From the NCBI GenBank assembly GCA_964384205.1, contig CAYLKS010000004.1:13301-77300 (forward strand): a stretch of DNA of 64,000 nt, read 5' to 3'. The notes below the pieces were generated by a model. The model was not told where the DNA came from. It did not search any database and saw only the letters and a program-made list of their open reading frames with translations. Shown piece after piece: positions 10,999 to 35,729 of this stretch. This DNA is from an uncultured bacterium. GTDB lineage: Bacteria; JAGOEH01; CAYLKS01. The translations under genes were made by a program, and so were the position numbers. How positions within the stretch are numbered: position 1 is the first letter of the stretch; every line of letters starts with the position of its first letter.

Positions 10999-11030
10999 TA
11001 AAATTTTTGGATAAAAAAGGATAAAATTAT

Positions 11031-19609: not shown

Positions 19610-19767
19610 TTTATTTAATAATTAAAAATTTTTCTTGATTTTTTTAGTTATCTTTGTAAAATAGAATTATGGACGTTTTTTTTATAATTAACATAAATTA
19701 TGGAAAATCTTAATTTTATATTCACAAAGGTGGTGTAATATTTATCCAAAAAATGGAAGGAGTGAGT

Positions 19768-22545
19768 ATGCGTAAGTTTTTTTCTGTAGTTTTGTTTTTA
19801 TTTTTTTTAGCAAGTAGTATTTGGGCACAACAAGGTAAGGTTCAGGGTAAAGTTGTTGATGTTAATTCCGGAGAACCATTAGTTTCAGCTAATGTTATGA
19901 TTGTTGGTACTAATTTGGGTACTATAACAGATGAAAATGGAAAATTTGTTTTGGAAAACGTTCCTGTAGGTAAGCAAAAAGTTAAGGTAAGCTATATCGG
20001 GTATAAAGAAAAAATTATTGAAATTGATGTGAAAGCAGGAGATGTTGTTACTGTAAATTTTGAACTTGAGGAGAGTGCTATTAAAGGTCAGGAAGTTGTA
20101 ATTGAGGTAAACAGAGCGGTAGAAAGAGAAACCCCGATTGCTTTTAGTAATATTGATCAAGAGAAATTGAAAGAAAAGTATACGGCAGAAGATGTTCCTA
20201 TGTTGATTAGAGAAGTACCAGGTGTTTTTGCAACAACATCAGGTCTTGGCGAATCTGAGGTTTATGTCCGCGGATTTAATGGTGAAAGAGTGCAAATTTT
20301 GATTAATGGCATTCCTGTTAATGATCCTGAAAGTCAGATTGTATATTGGTCAAACTGGACTGGATTATCAAGTAATGCTAAGTCTATACAGGTTCAAAGA
20401 GGTGTTGGTTCTTCTTTATATGGCTCTGGTGCTTTTGGTGGTTCTATTAATATAAGTACAATGGGGCTTTCTCCTAATAAACAAATTATTTTTAGATCTT
20501 CTGTTGGTTATTATACTACAAAAGGTGTTGATGGTGGAGAAAATGACGGTAAAGTTGCTGATGGTAAAGGTGGATTTGAAGATTATAATCCAATCACTTA
20601 TATGACAAGTGTTAGATACAATTCTGGTTTATTATATAATGGTAAACTTAATTTTAGTGTTTCTTTGGAAAGAAAAGGTGGAGAGTACTATATTAATGGT
20701 ACAAAATATGATGGTTGGTCTTTTGGTTTCGAAGCTCAAAGTATTTTAGGAGCGCATACATTATATCTAAGCTTTATTGGTGCACCTCAGCATCATAATC
20801 AAGCAAGAACGGTTCAGGACCCAGATTTATTTAAAACATTAGGTAGAGAATATAATAGAAATAATCATTCATATCAGGAAAATTATTATTTTAAACCTCA
20901 ATTATCTTTGAGAGATGAATGGACTATTAATGAGAATACTTATTTATTAACAAATGTATTTGCAACTATGGGTAGAGGAGGTGGAAAATATTTAAGAAAT
21001 GATTATTTTGATGTTGAAACAGGGGAAAATACTTTTAAAACTGTTAAAGAATATTATGATGATAAATATTTTGGAAGACATGCAAGGTTTGCTTATGAAG
21101 TAACAGGTGGCAAGGCTGTATTAAAGGGTTATGATCCTGATAATCACACTTTTAAAGGCCAGAATGTTTCTTATGGCACAAATTTAATTACAAATACTTA
21201 TAGTCATAGCTGGAGAAATGATAGCCATAATAACCATAAACAAATAGGTTTTAATACTGCTTTTCAACAAAAACTCAATAAACAATTGAAATATGTTGTA
21301 GGTGGTGAGGCAAGATATTGGGTTGCAGATCATTTTGCAGAATCTGAAAATTTTAGATGTTCCGATCCAGACGGAAATGTTATAACTTATAAAGAAGTTC
21401 AGAGAAGATATGATTATACTGGTAAAGTTCTAAATATGTCTGTTTTTGGTAGGGTAAACTATTCTCCAATTGAAAAAGTCAATATTATGGCAGACGTTCA
21501 ATATGCGAGATATTCTTCAAAAATAGAAGAAAATCGTATTAGAATTTTTGATTTTGAAGCCGGTAAATTTACAGATTGGTACTATTATCCAACGAAAGAT
21601 TTAGTTGATGATAATGGCAATAGAAAATATAAAGATAGTGATTATGAAAGAACTTTTAATTTTGTAAGTCCTAAATTTGGTATTAACTATAATCTTTCAA
21701 AATCTGTAAATTTTCTTGCAAATTATTCTATTTCTTATAAAGAACCAAGAGCGGCTGATTGGTATGATAGAACAAGAGGTCCTGGTGCTAACCAACCAGA
21801 TGGAAAGGATTTAGACCCTGAAAAACTTGAAAATATAGAATTCGGTTTTGGTTTTAATAAAAAACAGTTTGGGCAATTTAAAAATGTAAAATTATCTGCT
21901 AATTATTATATTATGAATTTTTCAGATAAGATCGAACGTGTAACTGACATGAGAGATGAAAGAATTACTATAAATGCCGGTAAAGCAAAACATCAGGGGT
22001 TAGAATTGTATGCAACAGCTGATATTTCAAAGTTTTATTTTAGTACCTCTTTAACATTGGCAAAAAATAGATGGCAGAAAATGGATGTAAAAGAAATTTT
22101 TTATGAACCGGCAGATTCTGTTGTTGATAAAGTAGTTCCTTTCTCTCCTGAAAAAATGTTTCATGCTAATGTAGGATATAATATTAGTAAAAAATTAAAG
22201 ATTGGTTTTGCCACAAGATGGTGGGATAATTATTATGCAACATATAGTAATACATATCAAACTTATAAACGAGGTGATGATGGGAAATGGCAAAAAGATA
22301 AAGTTGTTTCCTCAAAAATTGATTCTTATTTCTCTTTAGATGCTTCAATTTCTTATAAAATTAAATTAAAGGGAACAGATGTTAATTTTAGATTGAATTT
22401 GAACAATTTAACAAATCATGAAAATATTGTAAAAGCTGCGTATTCTAAAGATTATAATAGAAATGATTATTATCCGGATTATAAGGTTTATGTTGTTCCA
22501 GGTCCTTTATTTAATGTATTCTTTACCATGGAAGTAGTTTTTTAG
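19768..22545 (+). CDS. TonB-dependent outer-membrane receptor with an N-terminal carboxypeptidase-regulatory-like domain
   Basis: It has a signal peptide. The CarbopepD_reg-like N-terminus is QGKVVDVNSGEPLVSANVMIVGTNLGTITDENGKFVL, followed by a plug region (FVRGFNGERVQILINGIPVND). The large Tyr/Gly-rich barrel ends in an aromatic residue (F). The ATG at 19768 follows the RBS GGAGG. Confidence 0.75.
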   Translation: MRKFFSVVLFLFFLASSIWAQQGKVQGKVVDVNSGEPLVSANVMIVGTNLGTITDENGKFVLENVPVGKQKVKVSYIGYKEKIIEIDVKAGDVVTVNFELEESAIKGQEVVIEVNRAVERETPIAFSNIDQEKLKEKYTAEDVPMLIREVPGVFATTSGLGESEVYVRGFNGERVQILINGIPVNDPESQIVYWSNWTGLSSNAKSIQVQRGVGSSLYGSGAFGGSINISTMGLSPNKQIIFRSSVGYYTTKGVDGGENDGKVADGKGGFEDYNPITYMTSVRYNSGLLYNGKLNFSVSLERKGGEYYINGTKYDGWSFGFEAQSILGAHTLYLSFIGAPQHHNQARTVQDPDLFKTLGREYNRNNHSYQENYYFKPQLSLRDEWTINENTYLLTNVFATMGRGGGKYLRNDYFDVETGENTFKTVKEYYDDKYFGRHARFAYEVTGGKAVLKGYDPDNHTFKGQNVSYGTNLITNTYSHSWRNDSHNNHKQIGFNTAFQQKLNKQLKYVVGGEARYWVADHFAESENFRCSDPDGNVITYKEVQRRYDYTGKVLNMSVFGRVNYSPIEKVNIMADVQYARYSSKIEENRIRIFDFEAGKFTDWYYYPTKDLVDDNGNRKYKDSDYERTFNFVSPKFGINYNLSKSVNFLANYSISYKEPRAADWYDRTRGPGANQPDGKDLDPEKLENIEFGFGFNKKQFGQFKNVKLSANYYIMNFSDKIERVTDMRDERITINAGKAKHQGLELYATADISKFYFSTSLTLAKNRWQKMDVKEIFYEPADSVVDKVVPFSPEKMFHANVGYNISKKLKIGFATRWWDNYYATYSNTYQTYKRGDDGKWQKDKVVSSKIDSYFSLDASISYKIKLKGTDVNFRLNLNNLTNHENIVKAAYSKDYNRNDYYPDYKVYVVPGPLFNVFFTMEVVF

Positions 22546-23598: not shown

Positions 23599-24771
23599 TT
23601 ATTTAATTTTTATTACAATTAAGGTTATATCATCATCAGGTTTCCGTGTCCCTAAAAAAAGCCCAAGTTCTTTTAATATATTTTCTATAATAGCTTTGGG
23701 GCTTTTATCTTTATTGTTTGATATTGTAGCTTGTAGTCTTTTTTTCCCAAATTGCTCTTTATTATAGTTTTGAGCTTCAATTATTCCGTCAGTGTAAAAC
23801 AATATAATATCTCCTGAATCTATATTAATATCATAATTTTTATATTTACTAGTTGGAAGAAGCCCTAAGAAGAAACTGGGAGCATCAATTTTTAATATTG
23901 TATTTTTTTTTGCACTATAAATTATAGGAGGGTGATGTCCGGCATTGGAAAATAGAAGTTTTTTTTCATTTATGTTTATATCACAATATAATGCGGTTAC
24001 GAAAAAATCGGTACCACCTACTAATTTATATACGTTAGAATTTAGTTTATCTAATAAATTATTTGGGGACATCCCCCCCATATCTAATATACTATTATAG
24101 AATGATTTTATTGCGGCGGTAATTAATGCAGATGGAGTACCATGTCCTGAAACATCTGCTATAAGTAATTGCAATGAATTCTGAAATATATTAAAATCAT
24201 AAAAATCCCCGCCAAGTTGGGTAGATGGTTGATAATAGAATGATATTTCAAAGCCATTATATTCCTGGGGGATATTACTGGGCAAAAGAGTTCTTTGTAA
24301 TTCAGCAGCTAATTCTAATTCTCGTTCTAAAAGTTTTTTTTGTTCTAATATTTTGTTTCTATTTTCTATAGTTGTTTTTAATAAGTTATAATAATTAATA
24401 GCATTTTTTACTTTTAGAGGTAATTGAATATTTAAAATATTATTCGAAAGAGGCTTTTCTAAATAATCAAAGCACCCAAAATTTAATGCCTTTTTTATGG
24501 ATTCTATATCTGATAAGGCTGAACTTACAATAATAGGGATATTTTTATATTCTTTTGTATTTTTTATCCAATTTAAGAACTCAAATCCATCCATAATAGG
24601 CATTGTTAAATCTAATATTATTAGATCAATTGCTTGGTCTTCTGTAATTTTTTTTGCAACCAGACCGTTTTCTGCTTCTAATATATTATAGTTATATTTT
24701 TTTAATGTAAAAAATAAAATTTTTCTATTGAGTTTTTCATCATCTACGATAAGTACACTTTTTTTATTCAT
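23599..24771 (-). CDS. Response-regulator receiver fused to a PP2C-type Ser phosphatase (RsbU/SpoIIE-like)
   Basis: The receiver has the acidic pocket VLIVDDEK, the phospho-Asp context LIILDLTMPIMDG, and the conserved Lys. The C-terminal PP2C motifs are GGDFYDF ... ADVSGHG ... DGIIEA. Confidence 0.75.
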   Translation of the reverse strand: MNKKSVLIVDDEKLNRKILFFTLKKYNYNILEAENGLVAKKITEDQAIDLIILDLTMPIMDGFEFLNWIKNTKEYKNIPIIVSSALSDIESIKKALNFGCFDYLEKPLSNNILNIQLPLKVKNAINYYNLLKTTIENRNKILEQKKLLERELELAAELQRTLLPSNIPQEYNGFEISFYYQPSTQLGGDFYDFNIFQNSLQLLIADVSGHGTPSALITAAIKSFYNSILDMGGMSPNNLLDKLNSNVYKLVGGTDFFVTALYCDININEKKLLFSNAGHHPPIIYSAKKNTILKIDAPSFFLGLLPTSKYKNYDINIDSGDIILFYTDGIIEAQNYNKEQFGKKRLQATISNNKDKSPKAIIENILKELGLFLGTRKPDDDITLIVIKIK

Positions 24772-24783
24772 ACAATATCCTTA

Positions 24784-25662
24784 TTAGAGGTCTTTATATT
24801 TTATTAATGTAATTTGGTTACCTTTATCATTATATTCAAATTTATCAAAAAAAGTTTTTATCATCAGAATGCCTCGTCCATGCTCATTTAATATATTTAT
24901 ATCGTCATTTATTGTTTTTTTCCAGTTAAATCCTTTCCCCTCATCTTTGATAACAAATTTTACATAATTTTCTGTTAAATGGTAATCTATAACAACCTTT
25001 CGTTTTGAGAAAACTGGATGTTTTTTTCTTTCAGATAATAAATCATAATATTTATTATCTTGAATAGCGTGCTTTTTAGTATTCCCATCAATTTCAAAAT
25101 TCCCATGTTCTATAGCATTAATAATTACTTCATAAAGAGCAAGTTCAATTTTTTTTATATTTCGGGTTATTTTTTTTGCATTGAAGGTTAATTGATTGAT
25201 TACACTGGGGATTTTGGATAGATCATTTTCTAAAATTATTCTTTTTTTTTCTTCTATTAATGTTTCAGTATCGTAGAGATTTATTATATTGCGATAGAGA
25301 AAAATAGCTTTATTTATTAAAGTGTTCCATTCTTCTTGTTTATCAGGGATTTCAAAACAATAGAATAATTTTTTAGAATATAGTGTATATAATATATCCT
25401 TTTTGATTTTTTTTACAAGAGCTATAGGGAGTACATCTAATAAAAGATTTCCAGAATGAATCATTTCAAGTAGTTTGGATATATTGGGGAGTGATTCGTT
25501 TTCATAATAATATAATAAGATATTTACTTTTTCTTTAAGAATTATATCAAAAGCTTCTTCTATGTTATTATTTACAATACTTTCTATTTCATATTTATGA
25601 GCATTTTTTTTTATTGTAGTTACTATTGGATGATTTTCTTGAGTGAACAGCAAAACCTTCAT
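24784..25662 (-). CDS. Pseudo-receiver fused to an RsbW-like GHKL Ser-kinase/anti-sigma-factor-type ATPase domain
   Basis: The N-terminal ~120 aa have a receiver-like fold but lack the acidic pocket and phospho-Asp (Y in that position). The C-terminus (LYEVIINAIEHGNFEID ... KDEGKGFNW ... EHGRGILMIK) has the N, G1 and G2 boxes of RsbW/SpoIIAB-type kinases. Confidence 0.55.
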   Translation of the reverse strand: MKVLLFTQENHPIVTTIKKNAHKYEIESIVNNNIEEAFDIILKEKVNILLYYYENESLPNISKLLEMIHSGNLLLDVLPIALVKKIKKDILYTLYSKKLFYCFEIPDKQEEWNTLINKAIFLYRNIINLYDTETLIEEKKRIILENDLSKIPSVINQLTFNAKKITRNIKKIELALYEVIINAIEHGNFEIDGNTKKHAIQDNKYYDLLSERKKHPVFSKRKVVIDYHLTENYVKFVIKDEGKGFNWKKTINDDINILNEHGRGILMIKTFFDKFEYNDKGNQITLIKYKDL

Positions 25663-25682
25663 TTTTTTAACTCACTATTAGT

Positions 25683-26741
25683 TTAGATTTCATTTAATAT
25701 AAAAGGGATTTTAAGTAATGGTACTATTTTTTTGACAGCGTTTAATTTAATTGCTTCTTTAGGCATTCCAAAGACCACACAGCTTTCTTCATCTTGAGCA
25801 ATAGTAAAAGCTCCCTTTTCTTTTAATGCAAGCATTCCTTTAGCTCCATCATCCCCCATACCTGTTAAAATAACTGCAATAGCATTACTACCTGCGGAAT
25901 TAGCTGCAGATTTAAATAAAACATCCACACTCGGTTTATGTCTATTTATAGGTGGTCCATCTTTTACTTCCACATAATAAGTAGTACCTGAGCGTTGCAA
26001 TAACATATGCTTGCCACCGGGAGCAATTAGAGCAAGGCCTTGTTCTAATTTATCACCATTTTCTGCTTCTTTTACTCTAATAGGACAGGTGCTATTTAAT
26101 CTTTCTGCAAAAGCTTTAGTAAATCCAACTGGCATATGTTGTGTAACTACTATTGGTTTGACACCTGTTTTTAATCTTTTGAAAATAGTTTCTATAGCGA
26201 CAGTTCCGCCAGTAGATGCTCCTATAACGATTACAGGATCGGTTTTTATTATTTTAGTTTTATAATCTTTTATATATTCATCTACATCTATTTTTTCTTT
26301 TAACCCGGTTTTAAACTTGCTATCTAATGTTTTTTGTGGAAGTATTTTTGCTTTGACTGCCATTTTCAATTTTTCTATAATTTCATTTTTTAGAGAATGT
26401 AGCTCTATAGGAGCAGAAGGTTTTTTTATGAAGTCTATAGCACCCAGCTCTAAAGCTTTCATTGTTATTTTTGAATGTTTATCTGTTAGAGAACTAACCA
26501 TTATAACCGGGGTTGGATATTTGTCCATAAGTTTTTCCAGAAAAGTAATGCCGTCCATTTTGGGCATCTCTACATCTAAAGTAATAACGTCAGGTTTTCC
26601 TTCTTTTACATATTTTCGAGCTTCATAAGGATTTGACGCTTCTCCAATAACAATAAAATCAGGATCGCTTAAAATAATATTTTTTAAAACAGTTCTTGTT
26701 AAAACTGAATCATCGATAATTAATACTTTTATTTTACTCAT
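25683..26741 (-). CDS. cheB: Chemotaxis response-regulator protein-glutamate methylesterase
   Basis: The receiver is KVLIIDDS ... DVEMPKMDG. The CheB methylesterase domain is GASTGG ... TQHMPVGFTKAFAERLN ... catalytic region. Length 352 aa. Confidence 0.85.
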   Translation of the reverse strand: MSKIKVLIIDDSVLTRTVLKNIILSDPDFIVIGEASNPYEARKYVKEGKPDVITLDVEMPKMDGITFLEKLMDKYPTPVIMVSSLTDKHSKITMKALELGAIDFIKKPSAPIELHSLKNEIIEKLKMAVKAKILPQKTLDSKFKTGLKEKIDVDEYIKDYKTKIIKTDPVIVIGASTGGTVAIETIFKRLKTGVKPIVVTQHMPVGFTKAFAERLNSTCPIRVKEAENGDKLEQGLALIAPGGKHMLLQRSGTTYYVEVKDGPPINRHKPSVDVLFKSAANSAGSNAIAVILTGMGDDGAKGMLALKEKGAFTIAQDEESCVVFGMPKEAIKLNAVKKIVPLLKIPFILNEI

Positions 26742-26744
26742 CTT

Positions 26745-28217
26745 TTATATCCTTTTAGGGTTAACTATTTCAAATATAAAAGTTATTCCATTTTTTTGTT
26801 CATAATAAAATTTTATTTTTAAAATATCTAATAAAAATTTAATTATATATATTCGTAAAGTCTTCAAATCAACCCTTTCTTCTTCTATATTAATATTGTC
26901 CAGTATAGTAAAATCATTAATAAGTTTATTATAAGAGTCTTCATTTATTCCATCTAAATTAAATTTAATATAAATTGCATTTGAGCTTTCGTCAATATTA
27001 ATTTTTATTTTTTTGAAAAAATTTCTGTGAATAATTATTATTTCCATAAAATAAGTTATCAAATAATAAAATAAGTCAAAATCGAATAAAATTTTATTAT
27101 TTGCAATATTTTGTTCTATCGATATTGGAAATTTAGTAATTCTTTCCTTTTCAAGAAAGTTATATATACAATCTTCAACAATTCTTATAACATCTATTTC
27201 TTGAGATTTAGCTTTCGACCTGAAAGAACTTATATTTAGCAGATATAATAGATCTTCTATAAATGAAATCATTTGATTATAAGAAGACATGCTTTGTGTG
27301 AGTGAAATTGTAATATCAGTATGCTCTAAAGTTTTTAAATAATCGAATATATTTGCAATATTTATTAGAGGAATCTTGATATTTTGAGACAAAATAGATA
27401 TAAGCTTTTTTTGAATTAGTAGTAAATTTTCTAATGTCTTATTTGTATTTTTTAGTTCTTTTTCATATAAAAATCTTTTTAAGTGAACATTTATTCTGGA
27501 AATAAATTCCTCATATAAAAATGGTTTTACAATATAGTCATTAATCCCGGCATTGAAAGCATCTAACATATTTTTTTTATCATTGTTGCTTGCTGTCATT
27601 ATAATAGGTGTATTGGTGTACTCTGATTTATTTCGTATTTTTTTGGTTAGTTCAATACCATTAATTTCTGGTAAAAATAAATCTATAATAAAAAGGTCAA
27701 TTTTGTTTTGATTCATAATTTTTATAGCTTCTAAAGGATTATCTGTGGAAAGAGTTTTATATCCATGCCGATCTAATATATATTTTATCATAGAATTTAT
27801 TAAAGGAGAGTTAATGACGACTAATATATTTATATCTTTAGAATTATTTTTAGCATAGAAGAAGTCCCTGACAAAATTATATAAATTATCTTTTATTTCA
27901 TTTTTATTAAAAAAATGAATTGCTCCTACATTAAAGCCTCTTATTCTTGAAAAAAAATTATCTTTACCTGTTATCAATATAACAGGGGTATTGAGCATTT
28001 TTTTATTTTGTTTGATTTTTCTGCACAATTCAAAACCATCCATTCCTTTCATTATAATATTTATAGTTATAAAATCTAAATTTGTTTTGTTGATAATATC
28101 TAAAGCATCAAATCCATTACTTGCCTCTATTATATTTGTGTCTTCCAGTTTTTCTAATTCTTCTTTTATTAGAAAACGAGCTATTTTACTATCATCAACA
28201 ATTAGTACATTTTTCAT
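26745..28217 (-). CDS. Tandem-receiver protein with a degenerate (His-less) histidine-kinase-like C-terminal region
   Basis: REC1 has the Asp pocket (LIVDDSK) but Asn at the phospho-acceptor site (DFITINIIMKGMDG). REC2 keeps the acceptor Asp (LFIIDLFLPEINGIEL) but lacks the DD pocket. The HisKA-like helix reads ILSQNIKIPLINI (Gln where the His of SHELRTPL would be). A poorly conserved ATPase-like tail follows. Confidence 0.55.
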   Translation of the reverse strand: MKNVLIVDDSKIARFLIKEELEKLEDTNIIEASNGFDALDIINKTNLDFITINIIMKGMDGFELCRKIKQNKKMLNTPVILITGKDNFFSRIRGFNVGAIHFFNKNEIKDNLYNFVRDFFYAKNNSKDINILVVINSPLINSMIKYILDRHGYKTLSTDNPLEAIKIMNQNKIDLFIIDLFLPEINGIELTKKIRNKSEYTNTPIIMTASNNDKKNMLDAFNAGINDYIVKPFLYEEFISRINVHLKRFLYEKELKNTNKTLENLLLIQKKLISILSQNIKIPLINIANIFDYLKTLEHTDITISLTQSMSSYNQMISFIEDLLYLLNISSFRSKAKSQEIDVIRIVEDCIYNFLEKERITKFPISIEQNIANNKILFDFDLFYYLITYFMEIIIIHRNFFKKIKINIDESSNAIYIKFNLDGINEDSYNKLINDFTILDNINIEEERVDLKTLRIYIIKFLLDILKIKFYYEQKNGITFIFEIVNPKRI

Positions 28218-28219
28218 TT

Positions 28220-28825
28220 TTATTCAAAAAAGTTTATTCTTTCATTATCTTTATGTGCTGTTTGTTCTTGTTGTAATCGTTTTACATAAGCCTGTTCTTG
28301 TTTTATTTCTTGTTGAATCTCTTTTGATACAGTGCTTCTTAATTTTTTTACAAGAACTTTATAAGTATCTGTGAAAAATAGAATTTTTCTTCCCTGATAA
28401 CCACCAACATCTTGGTTTACAATAGGAATCTTTTCTAATTTTAAAAAGGTTACAGCAAATCTAATATTATTATCTACAACATTCCCTTCTCTTGTTTTGT
28501 AATTTAAAACATGTCCACCACCAAATACTTTTGCTTTTAGATTTTCTTTTTTTCCACCCTTTTTTATAATGTCATTTATTAAAACTTCCATAGCGAAAAT
28601 ACCATAACGTGCTGATGGTTCCATAAATATACGTTCATCTCTGAGATCTCCCACCAGCATAAAATGATTCATTCCTGCAATATTATTCACTTCATCATAT
28701 AAACATACAGCAATGCAAGAGCCAAGTACTGTGGATATTATTTCATTATCCGTAGAAGTATAATATTCACCTGGATTAATGACAACCATTGTTTTGTTAA
28801 ATCTTTTTTCAAACTTTTTATACAT
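28220..28825 (-). CDS. cheD: Chemoreceptor glutamine deamidase CheD, with a ~40-aa charged coiled-coil C-terminal extension
   Basis: The CheD motif GSCIAVCLYD with its catalytic Cys, plus NHFMLVG, is present. The 201-aa length is ~40 aa longer than typical CheD; the tail is KKLRSTVSKEIQQEIKQEQAYVKRLQQEQ. Confidence 0.8.
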   Translation of the reverse strand: MYKKFEKRFNKTMVVINPGEYYTSTDNEIISTVLGSCIAVCLYDEVNNIAGMNHFMLVGDLRDERIFMEPSARYGIFAMEVLINDIIKKGGKKENLKAKVFGGGHVLNYKTREGNVVDNNIRFAVTFLKLEKIPIVNQDVGGYQGRKILFFTDTYKVLVKKLRSTVSKEIQQEIKQEQAYVKRLQQEQTAHKDNERINFFE

Positions 28826-28827
28826 CT

Positions 28828-29658
28828 TTAAACCTTCGTGTATATTGTGCTTTTTATATATTTAAAATTTTTAAAATTTAATAATGATTCACTATGCCCA
28901 ATAAAGATTAATCCATCATCTTTTAGATATTGATAAAATTTGTTTAATACATGTCTTTTCAGGTCATTATCAAAATAAATCATTACATTTCGGAAGAATA
29001 TAAAATCAAATTTTACTTTTATTCTATAGTCTTCTAGTTTAAAATTTAGTTTTCTAAAAGAGATTTTTCCCCTTAATAATGGTTTTACTTTATAATGAAC
29101 TTGCCCATTTAATTCAATTTTTTCAAAATATTTTTGTTTAAATGATTGGGGGACAGGATATAATAGCTGTTCTCTATAAATTCCTTGAGATGCTTTTGTT
29201 AGTATTTCTGTATCTATATCAGTTGCCAATATTTTAAAATCCCAGCCAGAATGCTTTGATAAAAAATTGTCCAGTACCATTGCAATTGTATATGGTTCTT
29301 CTCCAGAAGAACATCCTGCACTCCATACAAGTATTGTATAAGGATTATTGTTGGCAATTATTTTGGGGAGATGCTCTTTTTCTAAAAATTCGAAATGGTG
29401 TTTTTCGCGAAAGAAATCAGTTTTGTTAGTAGTTATTCTATTTATAAAATTGATCATTTCTTCAGAATTGTGCCCCTGATTTTTGATATAGTTTAAATAT
29501 TCAGTAAATGAGTTAATATTTAATTCTTTAAGTCTTCGAGTTAATCTTGCAATTATTAAACTTTTTTTTGCATCGCTTATTTTTATTCCAATATTATCAT
29601 AGATAATTTTTTTAAATTCTTTAAAATCTTTATCAGATATAGTATCTGGAATTAACAT
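28828..29658 (-). CDS. cheR: Chemotaxis protein methyltransferase
   Basis: The N-terminal all-helical domain is followed by the SAM motif WSAGCSSGEEPYTIAMVL. Length 276 aa. Confidence 0.85.
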   Translation of the reverse strand: MLIPDTISDKDFKEFKKIIYDNIGIKISDAKKSLIIARLTRRLKELNINSFTEYLNYIKNQGHNSEEMINFINRITTNKTDFFREKHHFEFLEKEHLPKIIANNNPYTILVWSAGCSSGEEPYTIAMVLDNFLSKHSGWDFKILATDIDTEILTKASQGIYREQLLYPVPQSFKQKYFEKIELNGQVHYKVKPLLRGKISFRKLNFKLEDYRIKVKFDFIFFRNVMIYFDNDLKRHVLNKFYQYLKDDGLIFIGHSESLLNFKNFKYIKSTIYTKV

Positions 29659-29661
29659 GTA

Positions 29662-31017
29662 TTAGGCACCTATTTTTTCACTTATTTCTTCAAAAATGAT
29701 TTCAAATAGTTTCTCAAGATTAATTAATATAATCATTCTTTTATCTTTTTTCCCAACACCGTATAAAAATTCTGTATTAATCTTTGTATGAGCAACTATC
29801 GGCTCCTGTACTTCTTTCATGTCAAATTCAACAATATCTGAGACAGAATCCACAACAATCCCTATAATTTTGTCTAAAACTTCTATTACTATAATTACAG
29901 AATACTTAGTAATTTTTATATTATTCATATTAAATTTTTTTCTTAAATCGAAAATAGGGATAACATTTCCTCTTAAATTTAACATTCCTAATATATAATC
30001 TGGTGTATTAGGTATAATATTAGGTTGATGGAAGCCAATAATTTCTTGTATTTTTAGTATTTCAATACCATATTCTTCATTATCCATAATAACAGTTATG
30101 TATTCTCTTATATCGTTTAATGGTTGCTCTTCTTCAATGTTTTGTACCTCATATTCTTCTGGTATTTTTTCTATTGTTTGTTTTTGAGATTCTTCTAAAT
30201 TTTCTTTTTTAAATTTTAATTCTTTTTTGTCTTGATTTGTTTTTAATATATCTTCTTCTTTTAGTTGTATAATATTATCTTCTTTTATCTTTAGTGTATA
30301 GGCGACCATGTCTTTTTCCATTGGTGAAAAATATAATATAGATATTGGTAAGTGTTCTTCAGTATCTTCAGATAAATCCTGGATTAGATTTATATTTATT
30401 TTATTATCTAAAATTTCACCGAAGTTTGTAGCTTCTTTTACAAAGCTCAAGGGATTAATGCCCTTTTTTTCTAAATCATTAATTAAATCTATATTGATAA
30501 CAAAAACATATCCTGTTTTAAATTTTGTTTTCAAAATAGCAATATTTACATCAAAATTATAAGAACAGTTATCTCTTTCAAATTTGGTGGTTGTATTCAA
30601 TTCTTGAATTAATTCCTTGTCTCCACTTTCCTTCAAAGAATTATCAAGTAATTGAAGGTATTCTGTTATATCCATATTATTGGATTCTTCTACATTATCA
30701 AGTAATTCTTTAAGCCGATCAATAGATTTTAATAAAGCATTCGATATAGAAGATGTCATATTTATTTTTCTATTTCTAATTAAATCAAGAATATCTTCCA
30801 TTTTATGTGATAGTTTTTCTATATTATGAAGTTCAATGAAAGACGCTCCACCTTTTATTGAATGTATTGCTCTGAATATATTATTAATTAAATCAGAATC
30901 AAATTCTCCTGCTTTTAACTGTTGTTCAAATGATAATATATCATTTTCAATATTATTTAAATGTTCAGAAGATTCTGCAACAAAGTCTGGTATTAAATAG
31001 GAAAAATCTTCAGCCAT
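29662..31017 (-). CDS. Hpt(P1)-linker-CheW(P5-like) protein lacking the CheA dimerisation and ATPase domains
   Basis: The N-terminal Hpt helix has the phosphorylatable His in FRAIHSIKGGASF (canonical HTLKG). An acidic/coiled linker of ~170 aa follows. The C-terminal CheW-like domain is GIEILKIQEIIGFHQPNIIPNTPDYILGMLNLRGNVIPIFDLRKKF. No H-box-independent ATPase motifs are present. Confidence 0.65.
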   Translation of the reverse strand: MAEDFSYLIPDFVAESSEHLNNIENDILSFEQQLKAGEFDSDLINNIFRAIHSIKGGASFIELHNIEKLSHKMEDILDLIRNRKINMTSSISNALLKSIDRLKELLDNVEESNNMDITEYLQLLDNSLKESGDKELIQELNTTTKFERDNCSYNFDVNIAILKTKFKTGYVFVINIDLINDLEKKGINPLSFVKEATNFGEILDNKININLIQDLSEDTEEHLPISILYFSPMEKDMVAYTLKIKEDNIIQLKEEDILKTNQDKKELKFKKENLEESQKQTIEKIPEEYEVQNIEEEQPLNDIREYITVIMDNEEYGIEILKIQEIIGFHQPNIIPNTPDYILGMLNLRGNVIPIFDLRKKFNMNNIKITKYSVIIVIEVLDKIIGIVVDSVSDIVEFDMKEVQEPIVAHTKINTEFLYGVGKKDKRMIILINLEKLFEIIFEEISEKIGA

Positions 31018-31030
31018 AATATCCCCCTGT

Positions 31031-31498
31031 CTATAATAAGTCTAATTCTTCTTGAAATAAAATTTTGTCAATATTAACAATTAGTACAAAATAATTCTCT
31101 TTTTTTATTACGCCAGCAATATATTCTCTATCTATATTGGAATTTGTAATTAGGCTAGGTGTTGGTTGAATATCTTCCTTACTAAAATTGATTATATCGG
31201 AAACAGAATCAACAATTATACCTATTAATTTATTTTTAATACTTAAAATTAAAATAACAGTGAATTTATCATATTCTTTTTCAGGGAGATTAAATCTACT
31301 CCTGATATCTATAATCGGTACTGCTTCTCCACGTAAATCTATAATTCCTTTCACAAATGGAGGCGAATTTGGAATTCTTGTTATAGGTTTATATCCGATA
31401 ACTTCTCTTATTTTTAATACTTCAACAGCATAATATTCATTATCTAAAGTAAAAATAATATACTGTGATGTTTCTTTTATAACATCATTGGATTGCAT
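31031..31498 (-). CDS. cheW: Chemotaxis coupling protein CheW
   Basis: At 155 aa it is a single CheW domain: YAVEVLKIREVIGYKPITRIPNSPPFVKGIIDLRGEAVPIIDIRSRF. Confidence 0.8.
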   Translation of the reverse strand: MQSNDVIKETSQYIIFTLDNEYYAVEVLKIREVIGYKPITRIPNSPPFVKGIIDLRGEAVPIIDIRSRFNLPEKEYDKFTVILILSIKNKLIGIIVDSVSDIINFSKEDIQPTPSLITNSNIDREYIAGVIKKENYFVLIVNIDKILFQEELDLL

Positions 31499-33605
31499 AG
31501 TTCCCCCTATTTATATTTACAAAGGCTAAATTTTCCAGACCGTAGATATCAAGGATTAGTGAAAGATTGCCATCTCCTAAAATGGTAACACCAGCAGTGC
31601 CTGGTAGCTGCATAAAATTTTTATCCAGAGATTTTATAACAGCTTGTTGTTCTCCAATTATATCATCAACCATTAATCCAAACTTTTTATTTCTGCTTCC
31701 TTCTATAATAATGATCAATGCTTTTGCAGGATCTGTTTTTTCTGTTTCTAAATTGAATAATTTATGTAATCTTACTAATGGTAAATATTCTCCTCTTACT
31801 TCTATCAATTCGCCTTCTTTTTCTATTGATTTTATATTTTCTTGCTGAGGTTTTATGCTTTCTATAATAGACATTAGGGGGATCGTAATATATTCTTTAC
31901 CAACTTTTACGATCATACCATCGATAATTGCTAATGTTAGAGGAAGTTTTATTTTAAATGTAGTTCCTATATCTTTTTGAGATTCTACTATAATTGAACC
32001 TTTTAAATCTTCAATATTCTTTCTTACTACATCTAATCCAACGCCTCTACCACTAATTTCTGTGACTTTTTCAGCTGTAGAAAATCCAGGCATAAATAGA
32101 AAACTATAAATATCTTCATCGGAAAATTTTTGATTAGGAGAAATGAGCCCTTTTGATATCGCTTTTTGATATACTTTTTCTTTATCTATACCTCTGCCGT
32201 CATCTTTTATTTCTATAAATATACTGCCCTCTTGTTGATATGCTTTTAATTGAATTAATCCTTCTTCTGGTTTTCCTTTTTTTCTTCTTTCTTCAGGGGA
32301 TTCTATGCCATGATCTACAGAATTCCTAATTAAATGTTTTAGAGGATCTCCCAGTTGTTCAATAACATTTTTATCTAATTCTGTTTCTGTTCCATACATT
32401 TCTAATCTAATTTTTTTATTTAATTCTTTTGACATATCTCTTACTATTCTATAAAATCTGTTGAATGTCCCCTCCACAGGAATCATTCTGACTTTCATTA
32501 CCTGTTCTTGAATTTCTCTTGAAAATCTAATAAGATCCTCTAATGCATTTGCCATATCATGATTTTTAATAAAATGATTATCTTTGGAAATCTGGTTTAG
32601 CCTTGCCATAGCTATAACCATTTCGCTAACTAAATTAACTAATTTGTCAAGTTTTTGTGTATCTACTCTGATAGTAGAAGCCTTTTTTATTTTTTGTCCA
32701 GTTTTTTTTATGACTTTATTACTCATAGGCTTCTCCTTTATAGGAATTTGTTTTGTTTTGTTCTGGTTATTATCATTTATATTAGTTTGTGGCTGAACTT
32801 GGACTGTTACAGACTCTTGAGTTTTCGCAGGAATATCTTGAGTTTTTGTAATATCTTCTTTTTTTTCTATATTTTTAAGATATTCATTTGTTATATCTGA
32901 TATTTTAATTTTATTATTATCATCCATTACAAAAATAAATATATTTTCAATTTGACTTATCGGTTCTTCAGATTTTAGAATTATTTCCCACGATATATAA
33001 TGTTTATATATATCAATTTGATCAAAAGCTGGCAGATTATCAATATTTGTTATTGTTTGGACAATTTCTCCCACTTCTTCAAGTTCATAGAAAAACATAA
33101 TAGGATTTGTACCTGTTTCATATATATGATTATTTAAAGAAATATTTATTTTATAGAACTTTAAACCCTTATCAGTTTTTTTGTCGATTTTAATATTTGT
33201 TTTCTCTTCTTTTTGTTCATTTGTTCCCAGAAAATTATTTGCTTGTTTTATTAATTCATTAAATGTTGGTTCTAATTTTGTAAAATCTTCGTTGAAATTC
33301 TTATCTGTTACAAATTTTAAGACATCTTCCACCTGAAATAGAAGATTGATTATTTCTTCATTTAAAGGAAGTTCGCCATTTCTTATAACATCTAATAAAT
33401 TTTCTATATGGTGGCAAAAATCTGACAATTTTGTATAACCAACCAATGCCGTACTGCTTTTGAAAGTGTGAATCGCTCGGAATAATGCATTTATGTTTTC
33501 GTTAAAATCTATATTTTGTTCTAAATTAAGGATTGCTTCCTCATACTGATTTAGTAAATCTTCTGCTTCCTGAAAAAAAATTTCTTTAATTTGATCCTGG
33601 TTCAT
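31485..33605 (-). CDS. cheA: Chemotaxis histidine kinase CheA (P1-P5 complete)
   Basis: The P1 Hpt has His in FRAIHTFKSS. There is a P3 dimerisation helix and a P4 GHKL domain (IRNSVDHGIE ... IKDDGRGID ... SGRGVGLDVV). The C-terminus is a P5 CheW-like domain. Length 706 aa. Confidence 0.9.
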   Translation of the reverse strand: MNQDQIKEIFFQEAEDLLNQYEEAILNLEQNIDFNENINALFRAIHTFKSSTALVGYTKLSDFCHHIENLLDVIRNGELPLNEEIINLLFQVEDVLKFVTDKNFNEDFTKLEPTFNELIKQANNFLGTNEQKEEKTNIKIDKKTDKGLKFYKINISLNNHIYETGTNPIMFFYELEEVGEIVQTITNIDNLPAFDQIDIYKHYISWEIILKSEEPISQIENIFIFVMDDNNKIKISDITNEYLKNIEKKEDITKTQDIPAKTQESVTVQVQPQTNINDNNQNKTKQIPIKEKPMSNKVIKKTGQKIKKASTIRVDTQKLDKLVNLVSEMVIAMARLNQISKDNHFIKNHDMANALEDLIRFSREIQEQVMKVRMIPVEGTFNRFYRIVRDMSKELNKKIRLEMYGTETELDKNVIEQLGDPLKHLIRNSVDHGIESPEERRKKGKPEEGLIQLKAYQQEGSIFIEIKDDGRGIDKEKVYQKAISKGLISPNQKFSDEDIYSFLFMPGFSTAEKVTEISGRGVGLDVVRKNIEDLKGSIIVESQKDIGTTFKIKLPLTLAIIDGMIVKVGKEYITIPLMSIIESIKPQQENIKSIEKEGELIEVRGEYLPLVRLHKLFNLETEKTDPAKALIIIIEGSRNKKFGLMVDDIIGEQQAVIKSLDKNFMQLPGTAGVTILGDGNLSLILDIYGLENLAFVNINRGNYAIQ

Positions 33606-33617
33606 AACTGCTACCTT

Positions 33618-34001
33618 TTATGTTCTGATAAATTTTTTTGCTACTTTTATTAACATTTCAGGAGAAAAGGGTTTTAAAAGCCATCCCGCTGCTCCAGCTT
33701 CTTTTCCTTTCATTTTCATTTCGTTTTGGGATTCTGTTGTTAGTACTATAATCGGAATGAATTTAAATTCACTTTGTTTTACAGTTTTGATAAATTCAAT
33801 TCCATCCATTACAGGCATATAAATATCACTGAAAATTAGTGATACCTTTTCATTATTTGCATATATTTCTTTTAATTTCTCGATTCCTTTTTGACCATTT
33901 TCTGCCTCATATACTTTATAACCAGAGGATTCTAATATAGCTCTAACACTGGCTCTTAAAGTAACCGAATCATCAACAATTAAAATTATAGGTTTATCCA
34001 T
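33618..34001 (-). CDS. cheY: Single-domain response regulator CheY
   Basis: The 127-aa protein has ILIVDDS, the acceptor region FSDIYMPVMDG, T in VLTTES and K in LLKPF. It lies directly downstream of cheA. Confidence 0.85.
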   Translation of the reverse strand: MDKPIILIVDDSVTLRASVRAILESSGYKVYEAENGQKGIEKLKEIYANNEKVSLIFSDIYMPVMDGIEFIKTVKQSEFKFIPIIVLTTESQNEMKMKGKEAGAAGWLLKPFSPEMLIKVAKKFIRT

Positions 34002-34014
34002 ATAAATATCCTTT

Positions 34015-34278
34015 TTAAATAAAAAACTTCAACAACCCCATTTTTTTTAATAATTCTTGAAAATTATTATCTTTAATATCAAATTTAGTTTTTGGATACG
34101 TCTTTTTAAAAGACATCAAGATCTGTAAATTTGCCATATGTATTTCTTTTATTTTATCAATTATTATTAAACAGGCATCTTTGTTCTTTATTTCAGCTAA
34201 ATTTTTATAAAGTGTATCGACATCTTCTATTGCTAAAGAATCATGCAGTCGAATATTATTAGCCTCTATTTCTATCAT
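34015..34278 (-). CDS. Small STAS-like (anti-sigma-antagonist-like) protein lacking the phosphorylatable Ser
   Basis: This 87-aa protein (MIEIEANNIRLHDSLAIEDVDTLYKNLAEIKNKDACLIIIDKIKEIHMANLQILM) has the hydrophobic periodicity of a STAS/SpoIIAA fold but no DSSG motif. Its stop overlaps the upstream gene by 4 nt. Confidence 0.3.
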   Translation of the reverse strand: MIEIEANNIRLHDSLAIEDVDTLYKNLAEIKNKDACLIIIDKIKEIHMANLQILMSFKKTYPKTKFDIKDNNFQELLKKMGLLKFFI

Positions 34279-35489
34279 TGTTTCTTCCTTAGGGTAAATA
34301 ATTTATCAAGTCTAAACGAAGAAAATAACATATAAATATCATCATTGAGATTTACAATTTCTATTTTGATCCCTTTTGAATCCAGAGTTTTATAAAGAGA
34401 TAATATTTTGCCAATACCAGAGCTTCCAATAAAAGGAACTCCTCCGAAGTCTAAAACTAAAGTAGATTCAACCTCATCAACTATCTCAGTAAGATATTTT
34501 TTTAGAGTTTCTGATTGAGAATTATCAATTTCTCCTTTGATTTTTACTATTAACTGATCTCCTATTTTTTCTTTGTTAATTACCATATTATAACTCCTTT
34601 TTGGATTAATTTTTTTTATTAATTTTACTTCATTTCCTTTGTTATTATAAACAATTTCATCAAAGGCGTATCTCATTATTCTTATACCACGCCCATTAAA
34701 CTGATCGGAATCAATATCCGATTCATATAAATATTTTTGCCAGTCAAAGCCTTCCCCTTGATCCTTTATACTAAAGATAAGAGTACTATCTTTTTTATTG
34801 AACTCCATTGTAATTGTAATTTGTTTATTTATAGTATCGTCATTTAACAAACGCGATATTATTAACTCGTCAAAATTTCCATTTTGTAAAGCTTTTCGTT
34901 TTGTTTCATAATCTATTTCTAAGTTGCCATGTTCAATAGCATTCATCAATGCTTCAAATAGTCCCACTCGTATTTTTTCTGCTTCATCTTTTAATATATG
35001 TTTAAATAGGAAAAGAAGTTGGTTTATTGTAGGATGTATTAGATTAATATCATTGTTTATACTAACAATTCTTTTTTCATATTCTATTGATTGGGTATCA
35101 ATGGTAGACATATCTATATACTGCCTTTGCAATATTATCTTGCTAAATAAGTCTTTTAGTTCACTAAAATTAAATGGTTTTGATAAAAAGAATGTTGCTC
35201 CACATTCCATTGCTTTTATTATATTTTCTTTATTTGAATATCCACTTAATCCTACAATTGTGATGTAATTATCTATTATTTTTGTTTCTTCAATAATTTC
35301 AAAGCCAATTTTATTATTATTTAAAATCAAATCAATTATTACTGTTTCTGGAGAGAATTGTTTAACTTTTTTAAAAAAATCTTTAGGCTCATTAGATAAT
35401 ATTGGATTGAAACCTAATTTAATTAAATATTTTTTCATAATATTTAGAATGTTTATATCATCATCTAATACTATCACATTTTTTTTCAT
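34275..35489 (-). CDS. Three-domain fusion: receiver + RsbW-like GHKL Ser kinase + STAS (anti-sigma-factor antagonist) with a phospho-Ser motif
   Basis: The receiver is canonical (VIVLDDDI, VIIDLIL, LSKPF). The GHKL region is LFEALMNAIEHGNLEID ... KDQGEGFDW ... GRGIRIMR. The C-terminal STAS carries FGGVPFIGSSGIGKIL, matching the SpoIIAA/RsbV DSSGLG phospho-Ser site. The start was chosen at the Met preceding KKNVIVLDDD; the listed ORF begins 16 codons upstream. Confidence 0.65.
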   Translation of the reverse strand: MKKNVIVLDDDINILNIMKKYLIKLGFNPILSNEPKDFFKKVKQFSPETVIIDLILNNNKIGFEIIEETKIIDNYITIVGLSGYSNKENIIKAMECGATFFLSKPFNFSELKDLFSKIILQRQYIDMSTIDTQSIEYEKRIVSINNDINLIHPTINQLLFLFKHILKDEAEKIRVGLFEALMNAIEHGNLEIDYETKRKALQNGNFDELIISRLLNDDTINKQITITMEFNKKDSTLIFSIKDQGEGFDWQKYLYESDIDSDQFNGRGIRIMRYAFDEIVYNNKGNEVKLIKKINPKRSYNMVINKEKIGDQLIVKIKGEIDNSQSETLKKYLTEIVDEVESTLVLDFGGVPFIGSSGIGKILSLYKTLDSKGIKIEIVNLNDDIYMLFSSFRLDKLFTLRKKQ

Positions 35490-35729
35490 ATATTTTCTCT
35501 CCATTAATATAATAAGTATATAAATAAATATTGTCAAGTTTTTTTGTAGAAATTATTTTTCTTTAGAGATTAATGTTTTAAAAGAATTGTATGGTACTTG
35601 ACTTATTTATATTTAGTAGCTATATTAAAATTATGTTGATAGTTAAAGTAGTATGTATATGGAACAATTACTTAGTGTATATCAAAAAATAGTAATGGTA
35701 AAAATTGTTTAAATTGGAGTGTATGGAAT

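Follow-up and report, generated by a model that had tools for sequence, protein, structure and literature searches.

The locus studied here raises the question of what a set of chemosensory genes does when it shares a gene run with a phospho-Ser partner switch, that is, whether it signals to a motor or to a STAS protein. The genes lie in the window (the whole 64,000-nucleotide stretch of DNA that was analysed) as a co-directional minus-strand run spanning 23599..35489 or, with the alternative start of its first gene, 23599..35537. We consider it reasonably probable that the whole run forms a single operon for a chemosensory pathway of ancestral 'stage 1' F7-type layout, and that this pathway acts, in all likelihood, chiefly by setting how far a STAS domain is phosphorylated. 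The che/partner-switch run comprised 12 genes (g1 to g12); the earlier note, whose own list also names 12, had claimed 13, and no intergenic gap is big enough for another gene. The domain content named there was borne out for all 12 gene products by Pfam and profile searches.

The chemosensory part of the run, all on the minus strand, starts with a single-domain CheY whose active site is complete (g3, 33618..34001; Pfam Response_reg, 2.9e-27), followed by CheA (g4, 31485..33605), in which Pfam identified Hpt, H-kinase_dim, HATPase_c and CheW, giving P1 with His46, P3, P4 and P5. The best NCBIfam match of g4 was a CheA model (8.5e-156, under the equivalog cutoff), and the nearest CheAs outside the Hpt-CheW class were just 33-37% identical. 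CheW (g5, 31031..31498; Pfam CheW, 1.9e-39), the methyltransferase CheR (g7, 28828..29658; Pfam CheR, 2.3e-60, and CheR_N), CheD (g8, 28220..28825; Pfam CheD, 2.1e-26) and, by Pfam, the methylesterase CheB with an intact receiver (g10, 25683..26741) were also found. The gene between cheW and cheR (g6, 29662..31017; Pfam Hpt and CheW) codes for Hpt-CheW, a rare protein represented by about 15 clusters in a word-based search of 5.8 billion clusters. It consists of a P1 domain with the invariant His52, an alpha/beta middle domain (residues ~143-260), a disordered linker and a CheW/P5 domain, and its residues 9-283 align to CheA 7-267 in the NCBIfam CheA models. Its AF2 model (pLDDT 79) matched in Foldseek CheW (8c5v_E, TMt 0.88) and the P1 domains of CheA (1i5n, TMt 0.84) and of R. 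sphaeroides CheA3 (3kyi, TMt 0.76). Hpt-CheW is thus a kinase-less P1-P2-like-P5 derivative of CheA.

Partner-switch genes were found at both che ends. At the 5' end, g1 (34275..35489, minus strand; 404 aa) is a REC-GHKL-STAS fusion (Pfam Response_reg, HATPase_c_2 and STAS) that scored over the cutoff (62.9 bits) of the NCBIfam anti-sigma antagonist model TIGR00377. Its kinase retains the N-box NAIEHGN (183), G1 DQGEGF (243) and G2 GRGI (266), and its STAS domain has the conserved Ser in GSSGIG (355), Ser356 being the proposed phospho-site; the phospho-Ser is invariant in the g1-type STAS family. This fusion occurs otherwise in one protein cluster only, P0001, which is 99% identical and comes from an independent ENA assembly. 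At the 3' end, g11 (24784..25662, minus strand) resembles a GHKL Ser kinase or anti-sigma factor (Pfam HATPase_c_2, 3.3e-16; weak NCBIfam match to RsbW) with N, G1 and G2 boxes kept; its N-terminus had no Pfam assignment and by residue check is a degenerate receiver (DD 9-10, D53 and K are all intact in that of g1). The two kinases are paralogs (34% identity, E 4e-29). The last gene, g12 (23599..24771, minus strand), encodes a REC-PP2C protein of the SpoIIE/RsbU type (Pfam Response_reg and SpoIIE, 8.6e-48), with all four metal-binding motifs (GGDFYD 187, DVSGHG 206, TDG 327, DDDIT 379), which aligned full-length to the REC-PP2C protein RssB of Pseudomonas (4.7e-39, under that model's cutoff). 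The receivers of g12 and g1 both keep the phospho-acceptor Asp, acidic pocket, Ser/Thr and Lys, and therefore both could be phosphotransfer targets, as had been suggested.

The small STAS-like protein between g1 and cheY (g2, 34015..34278, minus strand; 87 aa) is a divergent STAS-only protein. Although g2 itself had no Pfam match, 6 of the 7 members of its family match STAS or STAS_2, the family profile matches RsbV (6m36_B, 4e-8), and hhalign aligned this family with the g1-type STAS family at 95.7%, so that the earlier assignment to STAS stands. A role as kinase substrate is not supported, since HMAN (47-50) replaces DSSG and the phospho-Ser is lost. Profile scores told two STAS lineages apart, and g2 groups with the STAS proteins encoded directly upstream of cheY (the CheS position), apart from the g1-type kinase substrate; the g2-family profile matched CheS-position ORFs of Rhizobium-type loci at 20-32 bits, a weak similarity.

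The combination of Che proteins and a partner switch has been described before, in ancestral F7 systems from Vibrio and Shewanella, and what is new here is a variant of it in an FCB-group bacterium. Stage-1 F7 clusters of Vibrio, such as V. cholerae cluster III and V. vulnificus che2, carry this combination (Ortega et al. 2020, PMC7184735; PMC10107281). Compared by layout rather than by formal class, the order of the shared genes matches the published Vibrio cluster minus two receptor genes, and the same order is seen in the Roseibium loci L042 and L043. In both systems the two STAS proteins belong to different lineages, and a putative function tied to a stress response instead of a motor is a further likeness. 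In contrast to the gammaproteobacterial clusters, the aer2-like and mcpA-like receptors are missing here, the second cheW-like gene bears Hpt (P1) and a P2-like region, the substrate-type STAS lies 5' and is fused to REC-GHKL, and the pseudo-kinase g9 is extra. In S. oneidensis, CrsR/CrsA from the che1 locus have been characterised as a partner switch that acts on RpoS, in which a REC-PP2C/GHKL regulator works with a STAS antagonist and Che feeding of the receiver is suspected (PMC9855816; PMC6482189). However, CrsR is a single REC-PP2C-GHKL protein, whereas in the present run the phosphatase and the kinase each have a receiver protein to themselves, and the kinase occurs twice; moreover, no RpoS-like gene was identified here, and Che1 includes two MCP genes. 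[quoted passage not shown] HptB, however, is free and fed by hybrid kinases, while the Hpt here is fused to CheW/P5 and presumably CheA-fed, and HsbR is a three-domain fusion, a difference in domain split that the earlier note had rightly pointed out.

We infer from domain content and synteny every transfer step of the following pathway. The catalytic and phospho-acceptor motifs have been preserved in CheA and Hpt-CheW, in four of the receivers, in the PP2C and the two GHKL domains and in the STAS domain of g1. CheA would be controlled by at least one methyl-accepting receptor encoded elsewhere and would autophosphorylate on its own P1 and probably also phosphorylate, in trans, the P1 of Hpt-CheW, a protein that could occupy the array in CheW fashion. 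R. sphaeroides CheA3/CheA4 offer a precedent, since an array-resident P1...P5 protein that is no kinase itself receives its phosphate in trans (PMC10782961); in that pair the CheA3 linker spans 794 aa and still includes degenerate P3/P4, and CheA4 has no P1, whereas g6 has a linker of ~200 aa that includes a P2-like domain, and its partner CheA is complete. The phosphoryl group could then pass to four competent receivers, those of CheY, CheB, g12 and g1. CheY and the CheS-like g2 would probably bind CheA together and serve there as sink or modulator, on the model of S. meliloti, where CheS binds CheA (PMC12654446). In S. meliloti and A. fabrum, a small STAS-only gene also lies directly 5' of cheY-cheA, making g2 a candidate counterpart, although the similarity is weak and g2 coexists with a second, phosphorylatable STAS. 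The PP2C would dephosphorylate Ser356 of g1 and the GHKL kinases g1 and g11 would phosphorylate it; as phosphatase and kinase both have receivers, CheA activity could push them in opposite ways. Lastly, unphosphorylated STAS or freed GHKL may bind a target encoded elsewhere, whether a sigma factor, an anti-sigma factor or an enzyme.

Alternatively, the locus could serve conventional taxis, with CheY acting on a motor, flagellar or otherwise, whose genes lie elsewhere, and STAS, GHKL and PP2C modulating CheA/CheY like CheS, with no output branch. An intact single-domain CheY adjoins CheA and may serve a motor or other CheY-mediated output, which we counted against the proposed pathway. The adaptation machinery is complete, g2 groups with CheS-position proteins, of which CheS acts on CheA/CheY1 (PMC12654446), and a CheA2-RsbU interaction was not found by two-hybrid for the V. 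vulnificus F7 system (PMC10107281). Nevertheless, we regard this explanation as unlikely. The g1-type STAS keeps its phospho-Ser, kinase and phosphatase retain catalytic motifs and their own receivers, and published Aer2-containing F7 systems of the same layout have no direct control of flagellar motility (PMC10107281). In agreement with the earlier note, window ORFs of at least 110 aa yielded no flagellar or pilus families, and flagellar, pilus and motor genes were absent from the 64 kb and ~7 kb past each end. Partner switching as the output instead of a motor, put forward in the earlier note, was overstated, given the normal CheY and the negative two-hybrid result; transfer from CheA to REC-PP2C is putative even in the model F7 systems.

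With respect to the input, no MCP signalling domain was detected in window ORFs of at least 50 aa, either by phmmer with the Tsr signalling domain or by Pfam, as previously noted, nor ~7 kb beyond either end. This result, the loss of both F7 stage-1 receptor genes and the lack of MCPs within 10 kb at 10 distinct loci with an Hpt-CheW gene (0/10) would fit a receptor-independent phosphorelay, in which array proteins were co-opted without MCP and the STAS proteins or g9 regulate CheA/Hpt-CheW. We find this highly unlikely, as all these loci preserve intact CheR, CheD and CheB, for which MCPs are the only known substrates, receptor-coupling CheW and P5 domains are retained, and MCP genes are often scattered, with 24 orphan MCP genes in S. 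oneidensis (PMC9855816); the presence of all three adaptation proteins therefore implies a methyl-accepting substrate. A sigma factor, which had been reported as absent from the 64 kb, is encoded at 50385-51242 (minus strand; 285 aa, sigma-70 regions 1.2, 2, 3 and 4); its relatives go by the names RpoD/SigA or primary sigma, and it looks like a housekeeping factor. The lack in reach of a receptor and of a plausible dedicated target, this sigma factor being only housekeeping-like, was also counted against the proposed pathway.

Regarding the unity of the operon, the junctions along the 12 genes measured -4, 13, 12, -14, 13, 3, 2, 2, 3, 20 and 12 nt, and no terminator-like site was found between genes, the sole minus-strand match lying inside the g12 gene; a separate Rsb-like operon, which the earlier note had allowed for, was thus not seen. 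A promoter-like site 5' of g1 (35509..35537, minus strand; TTGACA-17-TATTAT), followed by a Shine-Dalgarno-like GGAGAG, was the best minus-strand site in 14 kb (11/12), as a consensus match only and in an AT-rich region. Of the two g1 start candidates, ATG 35489 is most likely correct, because TTG 35537 falls in the -35 hexamer of this site and P0001 also has 404 aa. Comparison of neighbourhoods within 10 kb of the Hpt-CheW genes, found in Desulfarculales, other Thermodesulfobacteriota and MAGs (GC 26% to 69%), confirmed that the Che/partner-switch linkage is kept. A GHKL gene lies 3' of cheB, directly or after REC-PP2C, at 10/10 loci, STAS and small STAS lie 5' of cheY at all seven loci that include the upstream side, and REC-PP2C, separate or fused, occurs at 8/10; L005 and L007 have no PP2C within 10 kb, therefore the phosphatase arm is not universal. 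This recurrence at 10 distinct loci of several lineages indicates that the arrangement exceeds chance. The module split around the che genes, its spacing of at most 20 nt without terminator-like sites and its conservation across lineages support the partner-switch genes as part of the che operon, and we give hardly any credence to a chance neighbourhood of a che operon and an Rsb-like stress module that takes its phosphate from another kinase, even though ~300-aa REC-GHKL proteins exist outside che clusters (L002) and the phosphodonor of CrsR/RsbU-type receivers is not established in model organisms (PMC9855816, PMC10107281).

Special to the class or lineage are Hpt-CheW, the REC-GHKL-STAS fusion and g9 (26745..28217, minus strand). 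The latter has two Pfam Response_reg domains and a C-terminus without Pfam assignment that is a degenerate HisKA and HATPase_c. REC1 is a pseudo-receiver (D57 to N), REC2 lacks the acidic pocket (DD to IN), the H-box reads SQNIKIP without His, and no N, G1 or G2 box is left. Found in the 99% twin locus only and missing from every other related locus, g9 is, judged by this distribution, a lineage-specific insertion, and the protein, a catalytically dead kinase with defective receivers, most likely serves as a scaffold or competitor.

The chemosensory genes belong to a run of 12 co-directional genes on the minus strand, from 23599 to about 35489 (g1 to g12, numbered 5' to 3'), with successive gene-to-gene junctions of -4, 13, 12, -14, 13, 3, 2, 2, 3, 20 and 12 nt. 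The top sigma-70-like promoter match of that strand (TTGACA-17-TATTAT, 35537-35509, 11/12) lies just upstream of the first gene, and no terminator-like site was found between the genes of the operon, the sole minus-strand match (24080-24064) being located within g12. Since the TTG at 35537 is part of the -35 hexamer of this promoter match, it was rejected as the start of g1 (34275..35489) and the ATG at 35489 was taken instead, giving a 404-aa protein of the same length as its twin from an independent ENA assembly (P0001). A thirteenth gene, counted in an earlier note made from the sequence of this stretch, was also rejected because every gap is too small to hold it and the note itself names just 12.

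Pfam searches upheld the domain assignments of the earlier note, PP2C, GHKL and STAS included, with the small STAS protein g2 (34015..34278) recognised by a family profile. The elements of a Che core are all encoded: a CheA (g4; Hpt, H-kinase_dim, HATPase_c and CheW in Pfam) with P1 (His46), dimerisation, kinase and P5 domains, a CheW (g5) and a CheY (g3) with the phospho-acceptor Asp. The methylation-adaptation enzymes CheR (g7; CheR, 2.3e-60), CheD (g8; CheD, 2.1e-26) and CheB (g10; CheB_methylest, 1.5e-66) are present as well. The remaining genes code for a REC-GHKL-STAS protein (g1; Response_reg, HATPase_c_2 and STAS), an Hpt-CheW protein (g6; Hpt and CheW), a protein with two Response_reg domains and 250 residues without assignment (g9), a GHKL protein whose N-terminus has no assignment (g11; HATPase_c_2) and a REC-PP2C protein (g12, 23599..24771; Response_reg and SpoIIE, 8.6e-48). 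No Pfam match was found at E up to 5 for the linkers of g4 and g6 or for the g11 N-terminus. Alignment to E. coli CheY showed intact receiver residues in CheY, g1, CheB and g12, an Asn at the acceptor position of the first g9 receiver, the loss of the acidic pocket in the second (IN replaces DD) and a pseudo-receiver at the g11 N-terminus. The His is kept in both Hpt domains (CheA and Hpt-CheW), the N, G1 and G2 boxes in the GHKL domains of both g1 and g11, and the metal-binding motifs GGDFYD, DVSGHG, TDG and DDDIT in the g12 phosphatase. The two GHKL proteins are paralogs (34% identity, E 4e-29), and g11 has weak RsbW/SpoIIAB matches in NCBIfam.

The unassigned C-terminus of g9 gave nothing in a PDB sequence search or in Pfam at E up to 5, and a search of 1.84 billion representatives yielded just eight relatives, all weak (E 2e-5 to 8e-4). 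Each of these is a HisKA+HATPase_c kinase whose alignment extends over the two domains. In g9 the H-box reads SQNIKIP, without His, and neither the Asn of the N-box nor either G box is retained, so this region appears to be a dead kinase, its histidine-kinase nature being judged from the eight weak HMMER matches. An AF2 model from the single sequence (pLDDT 51) was left out of the fold search. The protein is probably a scaffold or decoy that lacks catalysis and is specific to this lineage.

The Hpt-CheW protein g6 belongs to a family that numbers only about 15 clusters, and an exact look-up returned no match for it. In the NCBIfam CheA models its residues 9-283 are collinear with CheA 7-267, and it is 31% identical to the CheA of the operon across P1 and the region after it. 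In the AF2 model (15 sequences, pLDDT 79), a P1 bundle is followed by an alpha/beta domain (about 143-260) and, after a disordered linker, by a CheW fold. For this model Foldseek found E. coli CheW (TMt 0.88) and the P1 domains of Salmonella CheA (0.84) and R. sphaeroides CheA3 (0.76), together with a weak match to the P1-P2 chain 2lp4. On these alignments and models, g6 is best described as a derivative of CheA that lacks P3 and P4, and its middle domain is tentatively P2-like. R. sphaeroides CheA3 likewise has a P1 with His and a P5 and no functional P3/P4, and its phosphorylation in trans by CheA4 (PMC10782961) is the functional precedent for g6. The comparison with this split CheA ends there, since the partner in R. 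sphaeroides lacks P1 whereas the partner CheA here has its own.

Hpt-CheW neighbourhoods were collected through database look-ups and by scanning 185,579 species genomes, among which the best match was 36% identical, and their genes were labelled by phmmer with the domains of the window. Ten distinct loci were obtained, the window included, with GC contents from 26% to 69% and hosts including the isolate Dethiosulfatarculus sandiegensis SPR, Desulfarculales, other Thermodesulfobacteriota MAGs and one MAG labelled Clostridia. The consensus arrangement begins with a STAS of about 102 aa and a small STAS of about 95 aa, followed by CheY, CheA, (CheW), Hpt-CheW, CheR, CheD, CheB, REC-PP2C and REC-GHKL, some loci having a simple GHKL of RsbW size or a REC-GHKL-PP2C fusion in place of the last two. 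GHKL genes occur in 10/10 loci, PP2C genes in 8/10, and both STAS genes in all seven whose upstream side is included. The linkage of che and partner-switch genes is therefore kept in 10 distinct loci, and because, in distant lineages, the latter lie on either side of the che genes, chance adjacency is ruled out. The reading of the Rsb-like genes as an independent operon was rejected on the same grounds and for the lack of terminator-like sites between the genes. The fusion of a REC-GHKL copy to STAS and the insertion of g9 are specific to the window, and receiver degeneration in g11 is shared with one other locus (L003). The fusion has a single 99% twin, P0001, whose look-up revealed a near-identical operon; the other g1 matches (at most 31% identity) are REC-GHKL proteins that are about 300 aa long and lack STAS. 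The best of these homologs (P0003) was rejected as an anchor for che clusters, its neighbourhood (L002) not being one.

Individual loci of this class also showed genes of other kinds. In two of them (L005 5327-6367 and L007 5374-6426), the gene immediately before the STAS gene codes for a 346/350-aa all-helical protein that is missing from the window; it had no Pfam match at E up to 5 in the L005 version and may serve as an input or scaffold component not yet recognised. No PP2C gene lies within 10 kb in these two loci, and in L005 a REC-PatA_N-TPR protein (663 aa, 14504-16495) follows the GHKL kinase in the place of REC-PP2C. A PilZ gene was seen 5 kb upstream in L007 (1191-1604), and in the Dethiosulfatarculus locus (L012) a 142-aa PilZ ORF (6188-6616) immediately precedes the STAS gene; this may reflect a loose c-di-GMP tie to this class of clusters or a coincidence. 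In the Clostridia-labelled MAG (57% GC; L010 14211-15905), REC, GHKL and PP2C are fused in one 564-aa protein, in an order that differs from the REC-PP2C-GHKL of HsbR and CrsR.

The two STAS proteins of the operon seem to belong to separate lineages. The 87-aa g2 has no Pfam match of its own and none among PDB sequences when searched alone, but it forms a family with the small ORFs that take its place in six related loci, and 6/7 members of that family match STAS or STAS_2 (best 2.5e-13). The profile of this family matches solved anti-sigma antagonists (RsbV 6m36_B, 4e-8; TM1442, 2.8e-6) and aligns with the g1-type STAS family at an hhalign probability of 95.7%. Given these matches and the presence of HMAN at the site where phosphorylatable STAS proteins have DSSG, g2 is predicted to be a STAS fold lacking the phospho-site. 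The STAS domain of g1 scores above the cutoff of NCBIfam TIGR00377 (62.9 vs 53.45 bits) and carries a Ser in GSSGIG that is invariant across 7 family members. Furthermore, the two profiles match different STAS positions in other che clusters. In Rhizobium-type clusters, Roseibium and other Alphaproteobacteria, the g2-family HMM gives weak matches (20-32 bits, E 5e-8 to 3e-4) to the small ORF that immediately precedes cheY, the CheS position, and the g1-type profile scores 0 on these ORFs; the likeness to CheS was judged on the ORFs at that position. The g1-type profile matches the 3'-end STAS beside GHKL/REC-PP2C in Azospirillum and Roseibium clusters (32-48 bits). On this basis, g1 STAS is most likely the kinase/phosphatase substrate and g2 a CheS-type CheA accessory, being similar to CheS in position (a small STAS-only protein immediately upstream of cheY-cheA) and fold family, with weak profile similarity. 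In S. meliloti, CheS binds CheA and changes CheY1 handling (PMC12654446).

The coupling of a che core to a partner switch is already known, as it has been described for the stage-1 F7 clusters of Vibrio and the che1 locus of S. oneidensis, so the interpretation of the earlier note was reasonable and not novel in kind. [quoted passage not shown] This layout recurs in V. vulnificus che2, where RsbU/RsbV are encoded, and a two-hybrid assay saw no CheA2-RsbU interaction (PMC10107281). The window has the shared genes in the same order, but both MCP genes are missing and the second antagonist is at the 5' end. The full stage-1 layout was found in Roseibium (L042/L043) as CheS-like, CheY, CheA, CheW, MCP, CheR, CheD, CheB, MCP, STAS, REC-PP2C and GHKL. 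These data suggest that the window encodes a variant Che/partner-switch system of ancestral-F7-like type; the closest CheAs from outside the class (33-37% identical) do not discriminate as to the formal F class. The variant is set apart by the Hpt-CheW protein, the absence of receptors within the cluster, receivers on both kinase and phosphatase, the unique kinase-substrate fusion and a host outside the Proteobacteria. In S. oneidensis, CrsR (REC-PP2C-GHKL) and CrsA (STAS) form a partner switch on RpoS, in whose regulation Che1 "could be involved" (PMC9855816; PMC6482189). The HptB-HsbR-HsbA system is more distant, with a three-domain REC-PP2C-GHKL protein and a free single-domain Hpt; here, as had been pointed out before, different proteins carry the phosphatase and the kinase, and the Hpt forms part of a CheW fusion.

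Regarding the input, no MCP signalling domain was found in any window ORF of at least 50 aa by phmmer, queried with the signalling domain of Tsr, or by Pfam, as the earlier note had stated for the 64 kb, with detection in another locus (L060) as positive control. MCPs were also missing from about 7 kb past each window end, in sequence from a 99%-identical ENA assembly, and 0/10 loci of the Hpt-CheW class, the window among them, have one within 10 kb. Other che cluster types in the same scan (Holophaga, Planctomycetota and Desulfobulbaceae types and Azospirillum/Roseibium types) have STAS, GHKL and PP2C genes too, but with MCPs. Regarding the output, the observation that opened this analysis was largely right apart from its gene count and its statement that the 64 kb held no sigma factor: a sigma-70 gene (50385-51242, minus strand) lies 15 kb from the che operon and encodes a 285-aa protein with regions 1.2, 2, 3 and 4. 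Its relatives are 285-aa proteins of Latescibacterota and Zixibacteria named RpoD/SigA or "primary sigma factor" (72-73% identity), and its top NCBIfam matches are RpoD models, so it is probably a housekeeping sigma, the short primary sigma factor of FCB type. This RpoD/SigA-like factor is the only sigma in the 64 kb, and neither an alternative sigma nor a FlgM or GGDEF family turned up there.

Starting from the domain content, motif integrity, operon structure and conserved synteny observed here, a signalling route can be proposed. Receptors encoded elsewhere would control CheA, which would load its own P1 and, in trans, that of Hpt-CheW. CheY, CheB, REC-PP2C and the receiver of g1 would then accept the phosphate, and on the CheY side the CheS-like g2 would act as sink or modulator. 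Phosphorylation of Ser356 in g1 would be set by the PP2C versus the GHKL kinases, and the free STAS or GHKL domain would bind a target. A bolder version, which we consider rather unlikely, makes Hpt-CheW the missing link of F7-type stress pathways: an array-embedded HptB-equivalent shuttle, loaded in trans by CheA, would pass phosphate specifically to the PP2C and kinase-STAS receivers, in a push-pull switch gating a global target in an FCB bacterium poor in alternative sigma factors, with receptors elsewhere or an unconventional input. That target might be the primary sigma factor, as has been proposed for the Rsb system of Chlamydia. The CheA to REC-phosphatase step has not been demonstrated in F7-type systems, one two-hybrid test being negative (PMC10107281), and Hpt-CheW together with functional receivers on kinase and phosphatase offers a concrete, testable route for this missing phosphotransfer, an idea that is the main value of the system. 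Additionally, the natural kinase-substrate fusion REC-GHKL-STAS could be handy for structural work on the switch. Since the linkage of che and partner-switch genes reaches past the Proteobacteria, to Desulfarculales and an FCB-group lineage, partner switching is arguably an old and recurrent Che output.

The placement of the host in the FCB group, made from gene content, is suggested by the sigma-factor relatives and by T9SS domains (CHU_C, PorV, Por_Secre_tail), and also supported by the SusC-like TonB receptors. A CHU_C-tailed protein is encoded at 171-1634 (minus strand), PorV-like, TIG and Por_Secre_tail proteins lie past the window end (L089 10739-14508), and the SusC-like receptors are at 19753-22545 and 57082-60297. 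The GC content of the window is about 27%, and the neighbours of the che operon are housekeeping genes (glutamate dehydrogenase, SusC-like TonB receptors, EndoIII, ZIP transporter, TyrRS, MMPL transporter). Amino-acid biosynthesis clusters on the plus strand flank it at 6535-12335 and 39766-46309, one for threonine (thrA-asd-thrB-thrC) and one for arginine (argF-like, argG, M20 peptidase, argB/NAT, argC, argH). A 500-aa ParA/MinD-type P-loop ATPase (CbiA, AAA_31; 15139-16641, minus strand), with 200 N-terminal residues without assignment, adjoins glycosyltransferase and CDP-alcohol phosphatidyltransferase genes and has no evident link to the che operon. Lastly, the window also encodes a 559-aa PilZ-domain protein (4485-6164, plus strand).
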